From: Sedimentisphaerales bacterium
GTDB lineage: Bacteria; Planctomycetota; Phycisphaerae; Sedimentisphaerales; Anaerobacaceae
DNA length: 64,000 bases
Reading direction: 5' to 3'
Assembly (NCBI GenBank): GCA_963708075.1
Contig: OY970194.1
Location: forward strand, 4,864,001-4,928,000
Numbering within the stretch: the stretch's first letter is position 1; the number at the start of each line of letters is the position of its first letter. The position numbers and the translations under genes were made by a program. This document shows, piece by piece, positions 20,421-39,800 of the stretch. The notes beneath the pieces are model-generated. The model ran no database searches, had not been told where the DNA came from, and was given only the letters and a program-made list of their open reading frames with translations.

Positions 20421-20706
20421 TCTTCTTTCGCCCCTGCGGGGCTTTGGGATAGGATTGGCTATGGGTACCCACCGTTGAAACGGTGGGCTATTGTCGATCG
20501 CCCCTGTGGGGCGGATGGGCCGACGCAAGAGGACTGGGGCGAAGTCCAGGCTCGAAGGGCGATAGAGAATAGCCTTCAATTTGACAGGACCACAAAGCTC
20601 AGCCATGGCGCAGTCCAAGCCCGCAGGGCGATAGAGAATAGCCCAGCGATTGATCGCTGGGGAACCGGGGCCGAGGACAAAAGCCAGTCCCGTAAGGGAC
20701 GAAAGA
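20421..20706. repeat. REP-like cluster (family A units in swapped order)
   Basis: Shares tctttcgcccctgcggggctt, tacccaccgttgaaacggtgggcta and tagcccagcgattgatcgctgggga with 561-757. Confidence 0.8.
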
Positions 20707-33671: not shown

Positions 33672-34676
33672 ATGTCGAAGCAACTGGATCGTCGCGAGTT
33701 TCTGAAAACATCGCTGGCCGGCTCGGCCGTCGGGGCACTGGGCCTGAGCTTCGAACAGCGGGCCCTGTTGGCGCAGACCGGGAAGCCGCCGGCCGCCGCA
33801 GCATCAGAGGGCTCGACGGGGGCCATGCCGGTGGGCCGGCTGGGCAAGCTCAAGGTGACAAGACTGATCGTCGGGGGCAACCTGACCAGCGGGTTCGCGC
33901 ATAGCCGCGACCTCATCTACGTGTCCGGCCTGTTGAGACAGTACTTCACCGATGAAAAAGTGTTCGAGACCTGGGAGCTCTGCGAGCAGTGCGGCATCAA
34001 TACGGCGATCCTGCGGCTCGATGACCACGTGATCGGACTGGTCACCAAGTACTGGCACGAGCGCGGCGGCAAGTTCCAGTGGATCGTCCAGGTCAAGCCA
34101 CCCAAATTGGACATCGGTAGTTTCAAGACCGACATTCAGAAGTGCGTGGATAACGGGGCCGTCGGGGCGTACATGCAGGGCGGCGTCGGCGATGGGCTCG
34201 TGAAGGACGGCCAGATGGACGTGCTCGGTGAGGCGCTGCAATGCATCAAGGACGCCGGACTCGTCGGCGGCATCGGCGCACACGACCTGCAGGTCCCCAT
34301 CGCCTGCGAAAAGGCCGGCCTCCAGCCGGACTTCTACATGAAGACCCTGCACAGTCCCAGCTACTGGTCCTTCAATCCGCGCAAGGAGAACTGGGATAAG
34401 TTCCACGTCGGAGGCAAAACCGACCGCGACAACGTCTGGTGCACCCAGCCGACGGAAACGGTCGAATTCATGAAGACCGTCAAGAAGCCCTGGATTGCTT
34501 TCAAGGTCCTGGCCGCCGGCGCCATCCACCCGAAGGACGGCTTCAAATACGCCTTCGAGAACGGCGCCGACTTCATCTGCGCCGGCATGTTCGACTTCCA
34601 GGTCCGCGAGGACGCCATCATCGCCAGGGACATCCTCAAAGGCACCATCCCCCGCCAACGCCCCTGGTGCGCATAA
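33672..34676 (+). CDS. Tat-signal protein, aldo/keto-reductase-like barrel
   Basis: DRREFLK signal, TRLIVGGN and KPWIAFKVLAAG; strong SD and GC3-rich codons. Confidence 0.75.
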   Translation: MSKQLDRREFLKTSLAGSAVGALGLSFEQRALLAQTGKPPAAAASEGSTGAMPVGRLGKLKVTRLIVGGNLTSGFAHSRDLIYVSGLLRQYFTDEKVFETWELCEQCGINTAILRLDDHVIGLVTKYWHERGGKFQWIVQVKPPKLDIGSFKTDIQKCVDNGAVGAYMQGGVGDGLVKDGQMDVLGEALQCIKDAGLVGGIGAHDLQVPIACEKAGLQPDFYMKTLHSPSYWSFNPRKENWDKFHVGGKTDRDNVWCTQPTETVEFMKTVKKPWIAFKVLAAGAIHPKDGFKYAFENGADFICAGMFDFQVREDAIIARDILKGTIPRQRPWCA

Positions 34677-34707
34677 GAAAACTCGAAGCACGAATATCGA
34701 AATCCGA
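34612..34707 (+). repeat. Left boundary repeat (3' end of the 33672 gene plus downstream sequence)
   Basis: 33 bp (34612-34644) identical to 36650-36682; similarity continues through aaaactcgaagcacgaa.atcgaaatccga. Confidence 0.9.
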
Positions 34708-34968
34708 CGGGTGGCAGCGGCAAGCGGAGCCTGCGGAGTTTGCCGATGGTATTGCCGGTTATCGCCAAGTGCCATGCTTATGCTTGCATAGGCGTGTCTT
34801 GTCGACGGGGTTGGGCAGGTCGCGTATCCTGTTGTCTGCTTCTGGCACTGCGGTTGGTAGTTAAGATGTGACCGCGGTCTTCTTCGCACGGAGTATGGTC
34901 GCAGCATGGGGGAGCCCAGACGTGGACGGCTACCTGTGAAGGACCATCATGGCCGGTGACTGTCACCG

Positions 34969-35286
34969 TCAGCCTTGATGGGCGGCAATGTAGAGACGAA
35001 TGGCCTCGTATGCCAGTTCCTGGATCTTCTTGACGAGGAGATTCGCTTCCTTGTCCTGGCTCCTCGGGGCCTCGCTGGCTGCCATCGTGAGAAGGCCGGC
35101 GTGTACGCCGAAAACCGAGGCCAACTCGTTGAGACTCTCCAATCCGATGCCGCGCTTTCCGTTCTCCAGCAGGCTGAGGTAGTTCACCGTCAAGCCGGTC
35201 CTTTCGGCCACGTTCTGCTGAGTCATTCCCAAATCCAGTCGAATTTGGCGTATGGCCTCACCGAGTTTTGATTTCGATATATTCAT
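34969..35286 (-). CDS. XRE-family HTH transcriptional regulator
   Basis: LGEAIRQIR...MTQQNVAERTGLTVNYLSLLENGKR...L..LA..FGV. Confidence 0.88.
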   Translation of the reverse strand: MNISKSKLGEAIRQIRLDLGMTQQNVAERTGLTVNYLSLLENGKRGIGLESLNELASVFGVHAGLLTMAASEAPRSQDKEANLLVKKIQELAYEAIRLYIAAHQG

Positions 35287-35332
35287 GCAACCACAACCAT
35301 TCAGAAAAAGGCAGGGTGAACATACTCTCATC

Positions 35333-35602
35333 CTACCCACTGCGGATGTTTCGCCAAATGCTGTAAGCTTTTTTCAGAACACCAAATACCACTTTGAGAA
35401 AATCAGGGGAGTCCACGAGGTTGGATAATTCTCGCCTTATTCGTTCGAGTTCCTCGACAGCATCATTGATGTCGTTTCTTATCGTTTGCGGGATCCCAGG
35501 TCTGGCCTTCAGGTGTAGCAGCAGCGCTCGTATATCATCCAGTTGCTGCTGAAACCTCCTAACCTTGGATTGTCTGTTCTCGCCTCTCCGAGATGCGTCC
35601 AT
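35333..35602 (-). CDS. 89-aa helical hypothetical protein
   Basis: SD gaaaggag 7 nt before ATG; helical, coiled-coil-like composition; directly upstream of the XRE gene. Confidence 0.65.
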   Translation of the reverse strand: MDASRRGENRQSKVRRFQQQLDDIRALLLHLKARPGIPQTIRNDINDAVEELERIRRELSNLVDSPDFLKVVFGVLKKAYSIWRNIRSG

Positions 35603-36220
35603 AACAGCACTCCTTTCGTACAACGCCTCAGCATTTGATCGAAGTGTCCGTAATGGAGATCAAGCCTGTCCACCCCTGCCTATGGGTTCAATGTGGACTT
35701 ATCCATATTCACCTATCCCATAGAGACTGCCCTCCTTTCTCATGATCGAAACCTTGGTAACCGAGGGAGATACGTGAACCAATGGCCATGGATCAGACTA
35801 CACTCATGGAAACTGCCCTCCTTTCTGCTGTCAGACTACCGTGGCATAGCACGAGTTCAGTGCTTCATCTTCACTTCCTTTCGTAACTAACCCTCGCCCC
35901 AAGATGGCCGACATGGCCAAAGGGGCTAAACCTGTTCTTTCGGCTCGGCAACACACCGATGCCGCATACACCTGCGGGCAACACACTCATACCCCGGTTG
36001 CGCCGGGTCGCCCGCTGTCGCCCGGCACAAGGCGGCACATAGGTGCCAACTCACGGCTACGTGACACTGCACCTCCTTTCGATCGAGTCGTGCCCTCGCG
36101 ATGGTAAGGCGGCACATCACGCAAGGCAGGCTCCGTTCCTGTGACATAGTGAGGCAGCATCTCGGTTCTTTTAAAACCCCTGATTCCGGTATTCGGTTTT
36201 CAAAGAACACCCTTCATGAT
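35603..36220 (-). other. Structured leader with repeated SD motifs and minigenes
   Basis: Five GAAAGGA(G/A) motifs. Minigenes MKH* (35868-35857), MSVV* (35807-35793), MG* (35721-35713) and MDKSTLNP* (35706-35680). Confidence 0.55.
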
Positions 36221-36254
36221 GGAGGATAGTACAGGCACATTGACTTAAAGTCAA
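36196..36254 (-). promoter_or_regulatory. sigma70 promoter with palindromic operator and boxA-like element
   Basis: TTGACT (36254-49), 17 bp, TACTAT (36231-26). Palindrome TTGACT-N3-AGTCAA at 36240-36254. TGTTCTTTGAAAAC at 36209-36196. Confidence 0.7.
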
Positions 36255-36561
36255 ACATAAAATCGAAAAAAAAAGAAAAATTTCTTTCGACCCTTCTTCC
36301 CCGCCGCCCGGTCAGTGGCTTTCCTTCTGCTCGCCAGCAGTATACCCGACGCATATGACCGCCGTCAAGGTTCCCGGCAGCCAACTGCGTGGACTGGATA
36401 GATGTGGTACGGCTGGAATGAGGGGGGTGGCTGGTGGGTTTGGTGAGCTGAGCGAGGGACGAGACAAATGCAGCGAAGACACGATGCGTTCCGGGTTCTG
36501 CAAAAGACAAGCCCTGCGAGCGATGCTTGCAAGCTTCGGGAATATCAGGATGTGTGTGCTA

Positions 36562-36645
36562 TTACAGGGTTGCGCGTTTTCGCAGCCAGGTGGCCGCGCC
36601 AGTACCGATGCCCGCCAGAAGCAGGGCACCCGGAGCAGAGACAAC
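36562..36645 (-). pseudogene. Orphan PEP-CTERM-like sorting-signal remnant
   Basis: VVSAPGALLLAGIGTGAATWLRKRATL* resembles the tail of the 42504 protein, but has no credible N-terminal body. Confidence 0.55.
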
Positions 36646-36649
36646 CGCA

Positions 36650-36741
36650 ACGCCATCATCGCCAGGGACATCCTCAAAGGCAACGTCCCTGGTACTCGTA
36701 GCTCCTGGCAAAAACTCGAAGCACGAACATCGAAATCCGAA
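36650..36741 (+). repeat. Right boundary repeat
   Basis: Degenerate copy of 34612-34707. Confidence 0.9.
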
Positions 36742-36835
36742 ACAAATGCGAAATGACGGAAACGCTATCGCAGCACGATGCCTGCGTTTCAGATTTCGCT
36801 GCAGTGAGACCGATTGTGGATTTCGAGCTACCCTG

Positions 36836-39800
36836 CTATGGCGATTCGATCCGTTTGAGTTCGCCAAGATACAACAACTGGCCTGTTCGGGGATCAACCT
36901 CTCCGATGGCAATGATGTCCGTATGGAAGCCGCGAATCCTCATGTTCGTGATCGCGTGGCCCCCAGTATCGAATGCCGCAGGCAGCACGATGCCCAAATC
37001 GGCGTCTTTGCCGGAGAAATTCAGAGGAACATAAGGATAGCGCGTGTCGATGTTCCAGCAAATTGCCGCATCGGCATAATGCCCGTGAAGAATGTTCACG
37101 TCCTGAACCTCGTACAACAGAACTTTGAAGTCTATCCGTATCGGCGGCTGCATCCCGTCCATCCTGACCAAGTAGTATGGGCTCACATCAACTCGCATCC
37201 CATCGGTGAGCGGCCCGAAAGACCACTTGCCGGGGTAGATGGCCAAGTCCGGGTCCAAGGAAAGACGATAGTCACCGATAGCGACTAGGCCGGTAGTGAC
37301 ACCATCGTTGTACGCCATTTCATTCCAAAACCGTCCATTGGAGAAGGACGTATTTGTCATCTCCGTGACCATCAAGCTGGTGCCATCATCATAGTTCACT
37401 GTCATCGCCCCGGCGACCTCGCTGATCCATTGGCCCTCCGGCCCATGGGTCCACTGAAACGTCCTCTTTCCATAGTCCGCCAGAACCACATAGTCGGGAT
37501 AGAACACGGTCTTGACCGGCGGCTTTGAATCCTCGCACTCGATCTGCTCCCATCGCAATCGCGGATAGTCCCGGCCCTCGCAGATCGTCCAAATATCCTC
37601 CGTCCCGTTGGCGGTCTCATCCACGAAGTCCCAGCCGGCGTCGAGGAAGGTCCTGGCGGTTTGCACCTCGGCAGTCGTCTTGCCGTAGCTATCATCACAG
37701 CCTATGGCCTCAGGATCCGGCTCTCCGAACATCTCTGCCAGGCCGCTGACCTGGCGATCCCAGAAGTAAGATTCGAACACACTCCCGGGAGCTCCGACGA
37801 ACCCGCCCACTCTGCCTCCGCCCGAGACACGACCGGCAAAATAACAGCGGGAGACCGCGCCGGTGAAAAGCGTGGGGGCATCCGGGTTGTAGGCGTACTG
37901 GAGCACCCTGTAGTCGATTCCTATAAGTCCGCCCACGTAGTCGCCGCCGGTGATCGTGCTGGTCGAGTAGCTGTTCGTCATGTTGCCCGCCCAGTTCGCA
38001 CCGACCAGGCCGCCGACATTGTTCGCATCCCCCGAGATGCTGCTGCGCGAACAGCAGTTGCTGATGGTGGCGCCGATCCAGTGCCTCCCTACCAGGCCAC
38101 CGACGTTGTTTGCGTCGCCCGTGACTTTGCCGGCGGAACTGCACTCCGTGATCGCCCCTTCGTTGGCTCCCGCCAGGCCGCCGACATCTTCGCTGCCATT
38201 GACCGCTCCGTCACTATGGGACCGCGTCATCGCATCCGAATTCACTCCCACCATGCCGCCGACATACGTCTCCCCACTCACGGAGCCGGCATTATAGCAG
38301 TTGTCGATCACATCGGAGTTGCTCCCAATCAGCCCACCGACTTGAGACAGACCGTTGACCAGACCCGCATTGTAGCAGTCAACCACGGCACCGGGACTGG
38401 AAGGCCGATCCCACTCGTCGCGACTGTTTCCTGCCAGCCCACCCACCGACTGTCCGCCATCGACCGTGCCGTTGTTGCCGCAGTGCGTCACATGTCCGCA
38501 GAAGTTGTCCCCGATCAGCCCGCCAACATTCTCGGCGCCGTAAACCGTGGCAGCGTTACGGCAAGAGTCCAGCGAGCCGCCGTTGGAGCCAACCAAGCCG
38601 CCGACAGACCTCTGACCGCTGACCAGGTTGGCGCTGTCGCAGCGGGTCACACGAGCTGCGTTATACCCCAGCAGCCCTCCGACCTGCTCCGTCCCGGTCA
38701 CGACGCTCGTGCTCCGGCAATCCGCCACGTCGCCCGAACCGTGATGGCCGATCAGCCCCCCGACAGACCACGCGCCCTTGATCGTGCCGGTGCTGTAGCA
38801 CCGGGCCGCCTCCCCATCCGTGAACCCTGCCAATCCGCCGACATGTTCCTCTGTGCCGGTGATGTTCGCGTCCACGATGCGCAAGTCCCTGACCTTGGCG
38901 CCGAGCACCACCTGGCCGAACAGCCCCAGATGTCCTCCGCCGGTGACGGTCAGATGGGAGATCGTCAGACCCGCGCCATCGAATGTGCCGGCAAAAGAAG
39001 GGATCACCGGTACCGCCCAGCGGGTTCCCGAGAGATCAATGGGAGCATCCAGCCGATAGTGCGCGCAGGGGCCGTAGTGGACCACAGCCCCCAATTCACC
39101 GGCGTCGGATACGAGATAAGGATCTTCCGCCGTGCCCCGGCCCGACAATTGGGGCGGAGTGTATCCGCCGAACATCGACAGGACTGGATGGCCGCCTCCC
39201 TCCGGCATCTGCCAGACCTCGGACGTTCCGTTGGTGGTTTCACCGACCCAGTCCCACCCTGCGGCGAGATAGGTCTGCTTGTCATGCATTGGGTTCGCAG
39301 CCGCGGCTGCAGTCCCCAGGAACCTGCGTCTGGCTGGCCCGCCAACGTTCGATGACTCCCCGAAACAGCCAATCACAGTCCCCCAGCCGGAGGTTACCGA
39401 TCCCCCGGCAGGCTTGCCGGCGATGGTGACCGGGCCACTACTGTAGCAATGAGTCATAACCCCCCAGTTCTCCCCCAGCAGTGCCCCCGCACTGCTCTTG
39501 CCATCCACGGCGGCGGTACTGTAGCACTGGGTCACAGTGCCCCAGGAACCGTTGTTTCCCACCAGCCCGCCGACACTCTCGTTACCCTTGAGCGAGCCGG
39601 TCGTATAACAATGGATGATGGCGCCGCCATTGCCCGCCGTCAGCGCACCGACACGCCAATCCGTACCAGCGACGTTGACGTCTGTCACTGCCAAGTCCCT
39701 GACCTCAGCCCCATGAGCCACCCGGCCGAACAGTCCCAGGTATCCGTCACCTGCGATGGTCAGGTGCGAGATCGCCCGGCCATCGCCATCGAACACGCCG

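Follow-up and report, generated by a model that had tools for sequence, protein, structure and literature searches.

A cluster of Shine-Dalgarno motifs and tiny open reading frames in a probable mosaic leader ahead of a rare XRE cassette of a Sedimentisphaerales bacterium

The bar minigenes of phage lambda combine a Shine-Dalgarno (SD) sequence with a two-codon open reading frame (ORF) and are toxic in trans by peptidyl-tRNA drop-off, and the CsrB/RsmZ sponges are separate, terminated RNAs that carry many GGA triplets in hairpin loops together with SD-like motifs. In the STAB-SD of Bacillus thuringiensis cry3A, an SD-like site in a long 5' untranslated region (UTR), far from the main start, pairs with the 3' end of 16S rRNA and is thought to hold the 30S subunit (PMC4113751). 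A two-codon minigene in the LEE1/ler leader of enterohaemorrhagic Escherichia coli acts in cis and raises expression of the next gene (PMC3262186), as does the mg2 minigene of axe-txe, a short ORF within an operon, through a proposed protection of the mRNA (PMC8708949). Upstream SD-plus-start sites or upstream ORFs of Sinorhizobium meliloti alter downstream expression by coupling or occlusion (bioRxiv 10.64898/2026.05.12.723736). Literature searches on STAB-SD elements and minigenes yielded single-site cases and no array of the kind presented here, a leader of about 600 nt that lies ahead of an 89-aa ORF (ORF89) and an XRE helix-turn-helix gene in a Sedimentisphaerales bacterium. It was found in a stretch of 64,000 nt (assembly GCA_963708075.1, contig OY970194.1, positions 4,864,001 to 4,928,000), hereafter the window, to which all plain coordinates below refer (Table 1). 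As judged from its sequence, the locus appears to be a variant of the known leader-minigene and SD-stabiliser elements.

Five GAAAGGAR motifs, designated SD1 to SD5, lie within 36080-35610, all on the minus strand and starting at 36080, 35882, 35825, 35739 and 35617. The genome holds a total of 510 GAAAGGA[GA] sites (both strands, 7,515,525 bp), and the present locus is its densest 520-nt stretch (n = 5), with a maximum of two elsewhere when overlapping stretches of the same locus are excepted. The SD motifs are clustered beyond chance. Over the whole window the motif count is ordinary (7 versus 3.68 ± 1.99 expected, with at least 7 in 9 of 100 shuffles), and the five motifs are not independent of one another because four of them are copies of one repeat. 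The motif GAAAGGAGG occurs at 77 sites genome-wide, just four of which are followed at 3-12 nt by a start codon opening an ORF of five codons or fewer. These four are SD3, SD4, one site in a related family leader described below and one TTG case elsewhere; that is, the present locus and the family leader provide three of the four cases in the genome. The cluster of tiny ORFs is both real and unusual.

All of the individual features named in a preliminary description of this DNA were recovered. The TTGACT-17-TACTAT promoter is present on the minus strand, as are all five GAAAGGA(G/A) motifs, each with a short ORF after it, and the 15-nt identity reported between two of the motifs (35826-35812 and 35740-35726) widens to 22 nt at 91%. 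Short direct repeats, including two occurrences of gtagtctga, and the small ORFs, among them the GTG-initiated frame of 26 codons, MDKSTLNP* and the 89-aa ORF, were likewise located. The central observation of that description, a strong SD followed by an ORF of 2-4 codons, is a real layout that is rare in the genome according to the motif and minigene counts above, and a genus-wide leader carries a related, conserved version of it.

The pattern GAAAGGAG(G)[TG]GC[ATC]GT has four matches in the genome, located exactly at SD1, SD3, SD4 and SD5. SD5 is the initiation region of the cassette formed by ORF89 and the XRE gene, and the same sequence precedes ORF89 in two related loci, L005 and L006. 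L005 additionally contains a separate 62-nt tandem duplication (492-570) of the SD, the start and about 13 codons, resulting in three SD-like motifs within approximately 70 nt; the upstream duplicate is in frame, with GTG replacing ATG, and forms a GTG-initiated extension. Given the match of SD5 to both related loci and the independent duplication in L005, the array is best read as multiplied copies of the ORF89 initiation region. Each of the four copies comprises 8-11 nt of anti-SD complement plus spacer. The 3' end of the organism's 16S rRNA reads ...CACCTCCTTTCTA, and SD1, SD3 and SD4 are therefore expected to pair with it over 10-11 nt, far beyond an ordinary SD. The enriched feature of the leader is the extended anti-SD complement, and not GGA. 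Both SD3 and SD4 keep an ATG at 9 nt, and the ORFs close after 2-4 codons. These two copies are identical over 15 nt, yet their flanks are unalignable, and outside a core of 15-22 nt the copies match neither each other nor anything else in the genome or genus.

Homologues of ORF89 comprise two 89-aa proteins with 72-76% identity, and when 1.84 billion proteins were searched with a profile built from the three, 29 family representatives passed E ≤ 1e-3, nearly all with lengths of 77-99 aa. Judged by these relatives, the 89-aa ORF is a real gene. Its predicted structure is a three-helix bundle (predicted local distance difference test score, pLDDT, 79.5), for which Foldseek returned generic helical bundles only, all at E ≥ 0.6. 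No sequence of a solved structure matched at E ≤ 0.1, PADLOC had no match, and the matches in Pfam and PHROGs were weak and below threshold. No further ORF89 relatives were found in 60 related genomes (two weak matches inside long ORFs), in 400 other genomes of the phylum or in the genome_contigs, viral_contigs, plasmids and phages collections. Both related loci are on metagenome contigs, L005 with the ORF and the XRE gene and L006 with the first 37 codons alone. DNA homology between the window and these loci (77-86% identity) is confined to 35635-34984 with sharp borders at both ends, so that the cassette consists of the SD, ORF89 and the XRE gene, with the long leader outside it. Its flanks differ in all three loci, and in L006 the cassette is truncated. 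A CTTACTTATTTCGGTCTTGAATTGA-like repeated hairpin element flanks the cassette in both metagenome loci (L005 136-165 and 425-450; L006 637-660 and 805-830), and L006 has an upstream 12-nt tandem repeat with AGGAGG at 361-400.

The sequence around SD2 belongs to a different family, being the captured 3' domain of a structured leader. A hidden Markov model of 25 full leaders detected four copies in the genome (two full length, one partial and the window copy), the last of which, 36038-35863, was aligned by nhmmer (E = 3.9e-21) to positions 264-445 of the 451-position model. Within it, 35984-35866 shares 81% identity with a 5' UTR in the same genome (G000:C1:6047056-6047175) that precedes a secreted-protein gene. 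The captured domain ends in SD2 and ATG AAG, codons 1 and 2 of a pilin-like gene, and there the homology stops; a tblastn search with 18 family proteins found no remnant of the family coding sequence in 34500-36900 (best E 0.032). The minigene ATG AAG CAC TGA is therefore read as a truncated gene start. According to the preliminary description, an alignment of the region to a decayed longer coding sequence would have counted against its model. This applies in part, in that the minigene derives from the cut-off beginning of a family of longer genes. A decayed coding sequence as the origin of the leader is unsupported, since tblastn found no remnant and a 94-aa ORF at 35926-36210 has no homologue. 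Based on an alignment of the 3' domain in 22 of the 25 distinct leaders together with the window copy (L041, L042 and L046 were left out), compensatory changes occur in 15 of 24 predicted pairs. One of these concerns helix P3, where the window copy alone has C-G and all 22 other leaders have U-A. The 5' domain of the family was not detected in the window, either with covariance model R1 (best match on the minus strand at SD1, 1.2 bits, E 2.1) or by pairwise alignment with the short variant L052, the score of which was reached in 11 of 300 shuffles.

The family to which the captured domain belongs is distributed across the genus, occurring in 20 of 24 genus genomes and in 4 of 60 other genera of the taxonomic family, with just one strong match among the latter. 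It is always found ahead of signal-peptide proteins of one superfamily (pilin-like, secreted). A structural model of one such protein (pLDDT 83.5) has a weak likeness to chaperone-usher pilin domains, the best Foldseek match having E = 2.2e-3, with none reaching 1e-3 and template modelling (TM) scores of 0.34-0.43. The full leader is approximately 400 nt long, and its consensus fold, derived from 20 of the 25 leaders (L044, L045, L046, L050 and the short L052 variant were left out), has 85 pairs, 32 of which show compensatory changes. An Rfam scan of the full leader gave no match at or near a family threshold and one chance-level row. Of 26 distinct leaders, 22 have the motif AAAGGAGG beyond -150 relative to the gene start, 21 of them at -315 to -335 and one short variant at -209. 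The full leader presents a conserved, exposed GAAAGGAGGT at a distance of about 320 nt from the downstream gene, with ATG-Thr-(X)-stop after it. An ATG stands 6-8 nt past the SD in 18 of the 22 leaders, its next codon encodes Thr, and the frame closes after two or three codons; the small ORF has 10 sequence forms, and its core falls into two length classes exactly 3 nt apart. The consensus fold leaves the SD unpaired, while GUGAUGACA pairs with a downstream segment, so that part of the conservation of the SD and minigene may be structural.

Taken by its composition, the leader is very probably a mosaic of a promoter with a 5' hairpin, four copies of an initiation region and a captured leader domain of 176 nt. 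The best explanation of the whole, to which we give slightly less than even confidence, is a composite, ribosome-loaded leader of about 600 nt acting in cis for a rare two-gene cassette that encodes a three-helix protein and an XRE regulator. The mechanistic part, a ribosome-loaded leader acting in cis on ORF89-XRE, is proposed tentatively, and we regard it as somewhat doubtful. Transcription would start near 36219 and read through into ORF89-XRE; the promoter scan placed only two sigma-70-like sites on the minus strand, at 36254 and 36368, and the terminator scan found no terminator-like site on that strand from 36226 to 34969. Ribosomal subunits would bind the over-long SDs and the minigenes would be translated. 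The long leader, so occupied, would be shielded from endonucleases, and downstream expression would be raised or tuned in cis. STAB-SD elements and two-codon leader minigenes are examples of this mode of action, and such 5' stabilisers and minigenes are the nearest precedents with experimental tests (PMC4113751, PMC3262186, PMC8708949; see also PMC5737220). The palindrome TTGACTTtAAGTCAA, which spans the -35 hexamer, is a candidate operator at which the XRE protein may act as a repressor of the promoter. The genome encodes RNase E/G and RNase Y, and with RNase J not found (see below) any protection would therefore be against endonucleases. A broader proposal, which we consider unlikely, is that the lineage possesses a dedicated cis module in which a 10-11 nt anti-SD complement and a 2-4 codon ORF stabilise or gate long leaders in a ribosome-dependent manner. 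Across the genus this module would be conserved once, in the ~400-nt pilin-gene leader, and the present locus would have multiplied it to three or four copies, by which an accessory XRE operon is driven or tuned.

Several findings weigh against a functional cis leader. The captured domain is a fragment that lacks both the 5' domain and the coding sequence, and the SD1 copy has lost its ATG. Upstream of the cassettes in L005 and L006 the long leader is absent, with other sequence present beyond about 20 nt above the SD. The gain in folding energy of the leader over shuffled sequences is modest (z = -2.0), and the mean unpaired probability at the SDs (0.37-0.65 versus 0.38 overall) indicates only partial access in the predicted fold. 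RNase J, which STAB-SD blocks in Bacillus, was not found using TIGR00649 in this genome, which is 92.8% complete. Marks of rearrangement are also evident in the surrounding island, including a flanking duplication, a 12-nt direct repeat and the truncated cassette of L006. The fragmentary, rearranged state of the island argues for a scar, that is, a non-functional product of serial tandem duplication and illegitimate recombination with a host leader, with decaying upstream copies and minigenes that are no more than closed remnants. The tandem duplication in L005, with its upstream copy in frame and ATG changed to GTG, would represent an early stage of this process, and the scar reading agrees with the sharp cassette borders, the differing flanks of the three loci and the truncation of L006, as well as with a captured domain cut at both ends, a direct repeat around the SD1 segment and a duplication of approximately 100 nt flanking the island. 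Neutral decay should, however, affect SD cores and flanks equally, yet perfect pairing over 10-11 nt is preserved in three copies, SD3 and SD4 hold their ATG at equal spacing in unalignable surroundings, and the helices of the captured domain are retained. Function is argued for by the perfect SD cores amid unalignable flanks, and we consider the scar a credible explanation with a probability well below even.

The remaining alternatives concern where transcription starts and what the transcript does. A proximal promoter near 35663-35635 might drive ORF89-XRE, leaving the upstream leader as an orphan transcript or silent; homology to L005 and L006 starts only at 35635, and the cassette therefore probably brings or finds its own signals, and an inverted repeat, TTGATC-N17-GATCAA, abuts this border. 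The promoter scan gave no sigma-70-like site near 35663-35635, its two minus-strand sites being those at 36254 and 36368, and we judge this arrangement improbable. Lower still is our estimate for the model of the preliminary description, a boxA-led, Nus-protected RNA that in trans either sequesters ribosomes, tRNA or CsrA as a sponge or partners the 89-aa protein, which we consider very improbable. The boxA-like motif TGTTCTTTGAAAAC matches the organism's own rrn-leader motif AGATCTTTGACAA at 10 of 13 positions, a likeness of sequence only. The minimum free energy (MFE) and centroid folds both place it in the 5' strand of a 13-bp hairpin, a predicted pairing that would leave it not single-stranded for NusB/E, and it is absent above the cassette in L005 and L006 (0/2); the proposed recruitment of Nus factors is thus not supported. 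A CsrA gene is encoded (PF02599, 89.9 bits), but GGA is neither enriched in the leader (12 versus 14.5 ± 3.0 expected) nor presented in hairpin loops (1 of 12 in the MFE fold), which does not support the suggested CsrA sponge, nor does any terminator-like site delimit a separate RNA of the CsrB type between the leader and ORF89. The series of SDs with 2-4 codon ORFs does fit the bar-type layout. An Rfam scan of the leader region, however, gave no match at or near a family threshold and a single chance-level snoRNA row. No known family of RNA-binding, toxin or defence proteins was matched by the 89-aa protein, with no PADLOC match and only weak, sub-threshold matches to Pfam and solved structures, so that the toxin-antitoxin or defence role considered for it is not supported; for a type II toxin-antitoxin system with an XRE antitoxin, no recognisable toxin family accompanies the helix-turn-helix protein. 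The anticipated conservation of SD arrays and boxA near homologues of the ORF89-XRE pair was not seen at the two related loci, both of which lack the long leader, L005 having only its tandem duplication of SD and start. The reading of the stretch as a boxA element or a protein-sponge RNA is not supported.

The leader and cassette are situated in a low-GC island of 2 kb (34612-36740; 45-52% GC versus 60-66% in the flanks). This is bracketed by an imperfect direct repeat of ~100 nt (34612-34707 and 36650-36740) composed of two blocks at 95-97% and a diverged 25-nt middle, which corresponds to the duplicated 3' end of a gene with a twin-arginine translocation (TAT) signal at 33672-34676. The right island junction is spanned by an independent contig (run X2, record 14), and contigs from four DNA runs agree with the sequence. 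No integrase was found within the bracketed island. At 34708-34750 there is a 42-nt repeat of repetitive extragenic palindromic (REP) appearance, which has more than 100 copies in the genome and is likewise found in many copies among its congeners. An ORF tail on the minus strand (36562-36650, ending ...VSAPGALLLAGIGTGAATWLRKRATL*) has no Pfam match and is perhaps a piece of a gene at the edge of the island; we take it to resemble a PEP-CTERM sorting signal. Four Acido-Lenti-1 RNA matches above the Rfam threshold form two facing pairs approximately 20 kb apart (562-757 and 20468-20661) and may mark the ends of an element. For the neighbouring GLUG protein (C-terminal 354 aa), no close orthologue was found in 23 other genus genomes, the best match being 45% over the whole query and one partial match 68%.

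Table 1 Features of the leader, the cassette and the related leader family. Coordinates are window positions unless a locus or genome handle is given
Feature	Coordinates	Strand	Basis or remark
Second sigma-70-like site TTGACG-18-TATACT	36339-36368	minus	scan 10/12; 110 nt upstream of the TTGACT promoter
Sigma-70-like promoter TTGACT-17-TACTAT	-35 36254-36249, -10 36231-36226	minus	scan 9/12; A/T-rich tract upstream
Palindrome TTGACTTtAAGTCAA	36254-36240	minus	contains the -35 hexamer; single genome occurrence
Five-codon ORF ATG AAG GGT GTT CTT TGA	36200-36217	minus	begins at about the predicted transcript 5' end; possibly leaderless; overlaps 5' hairpin arm
boxA-like motif TGTTCTTTGAAAAC	36209-36196	minus	sequence reading
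5'-proximal hairpin, arm GTTCTTTGAAAAC (36208-36196) with arm GTTTTAAAAGAAC (36177-36165)	36165-36208	minus	13 bp, one mismatch; inverted copy found; paired in MFE and centroid folds
12-nt perfect direct repeat ATGTGCCGCCTT	36117-36106, 36040-36029	minus	flanks 65-nt segment with SD1; copy 2 at 5' edge of captured leader domain
SD1 GAAAGGAGGTGCAGT	36066-36080	minus	11 nt complementary to 16S 3' end; copy of the ORF89 initiation-region repeat
26-codon ORF, GTG start at 36067	36067-35987	minus	follows SD1
Captured leader 3' domain, helices kept	35863-36038	minus	176 nt; nhmmer E 3.9e-21
SD2 GAAAGGAAG	35882-35875	minus	3' end of captured leader domain
Minigene ATG AAG CAC TGA	35868-35857	minus	follows SD2
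SD3 AGAAAGGAGGGCAGTTTCC, then ATG AGT GTA GTC TGA (35807-35793)	35793-35826	minus	repeat and minigene scans
SD4 AGAAAGGAGGGCAGTCTCT, then ATG GGA TAG (35721-35713)	35713-35740	minus	repeat and minigene scans
Eight-codon ORF MDKSTLNP*	35680-35706	minus	weak SD; sequence reading
Inverted repeat TTGATC-N17-GATCAA	abuts 35635 cassette border		inverted-repeat scan
SD5 GAAAGGAGTGCTGTT	35617-35603	minus	initiation region of the 89-aa ORF
89-aa ORF (ORF89)	35602-35333	minus	gene with homologues
XRE helix-turn-helix gene	35286-34969	minus	HTH_3 match 1.6e-13
Family leader copies	L001 4734-5179 (= G000:C1:6046741-6047182); G000:C1:7386942-7386505; loci L020, L024, L028-L052		

Should the SD-minigene units act in cis, they would provide a natural case of several ribosome-holding sites tiling one bacterial leader, in a lineage outside the Firmicutes and Enterobacteria that supplied the described STAB-SD and leader-minigene cases. 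If it is a scar only, it would still show that tandem duplication of initiation regions is able to yield strings of tiny ORFs. The genus-wide leader may outrank the array in interest, being a conserved, covarying RNA with an exposed SD and an ORF of 2-3 codons ahead of pilin-like genes.

Compared with the described systems, the locus resembles STAB-SD in having SD-like sites complementary to 16S rRNA (8-11 nt), with SD1 to SD4 placed approximately 115-465 nt above the ORF89 ATG, and the cry3A element reads GAAAGGAGG, the core found in the present leader. STAB-SD is a single, non-initiating site that blocks RNase J1, whereas several sites are present here, most with start and stop codons, in a genome in which RNase J was not found. 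As in LEE1 and mg2, ORFs of 2-4 codons with an SD stand in a long leader (SD2, SD3 and SD4), here as sequence features; those leaders have one minigene each, in contrast to up to four in tandem with over-long SDs in the present case. The single sites near the main ribosome-binding site in S. meliloti differ likewise from an array spaced over 470 nt. The lambda bar minigenes share the succession of an SD and a very short ORF but differ in their toxicity in trans, and with CsrB/RsmZ the locus has repeated GGA-containing motifs in common, although GGA is neither enriched nor presented in loops and no terminator is present. The genus-wide pilin-gene leader shares its 3' domain with the window copy and, in its full form, likewise has an SD followed by a tiny ORF, whereas the window copy is without the 5' domain (the SD-minigene and two hairpins) and without a downstream signal-peptide gene.

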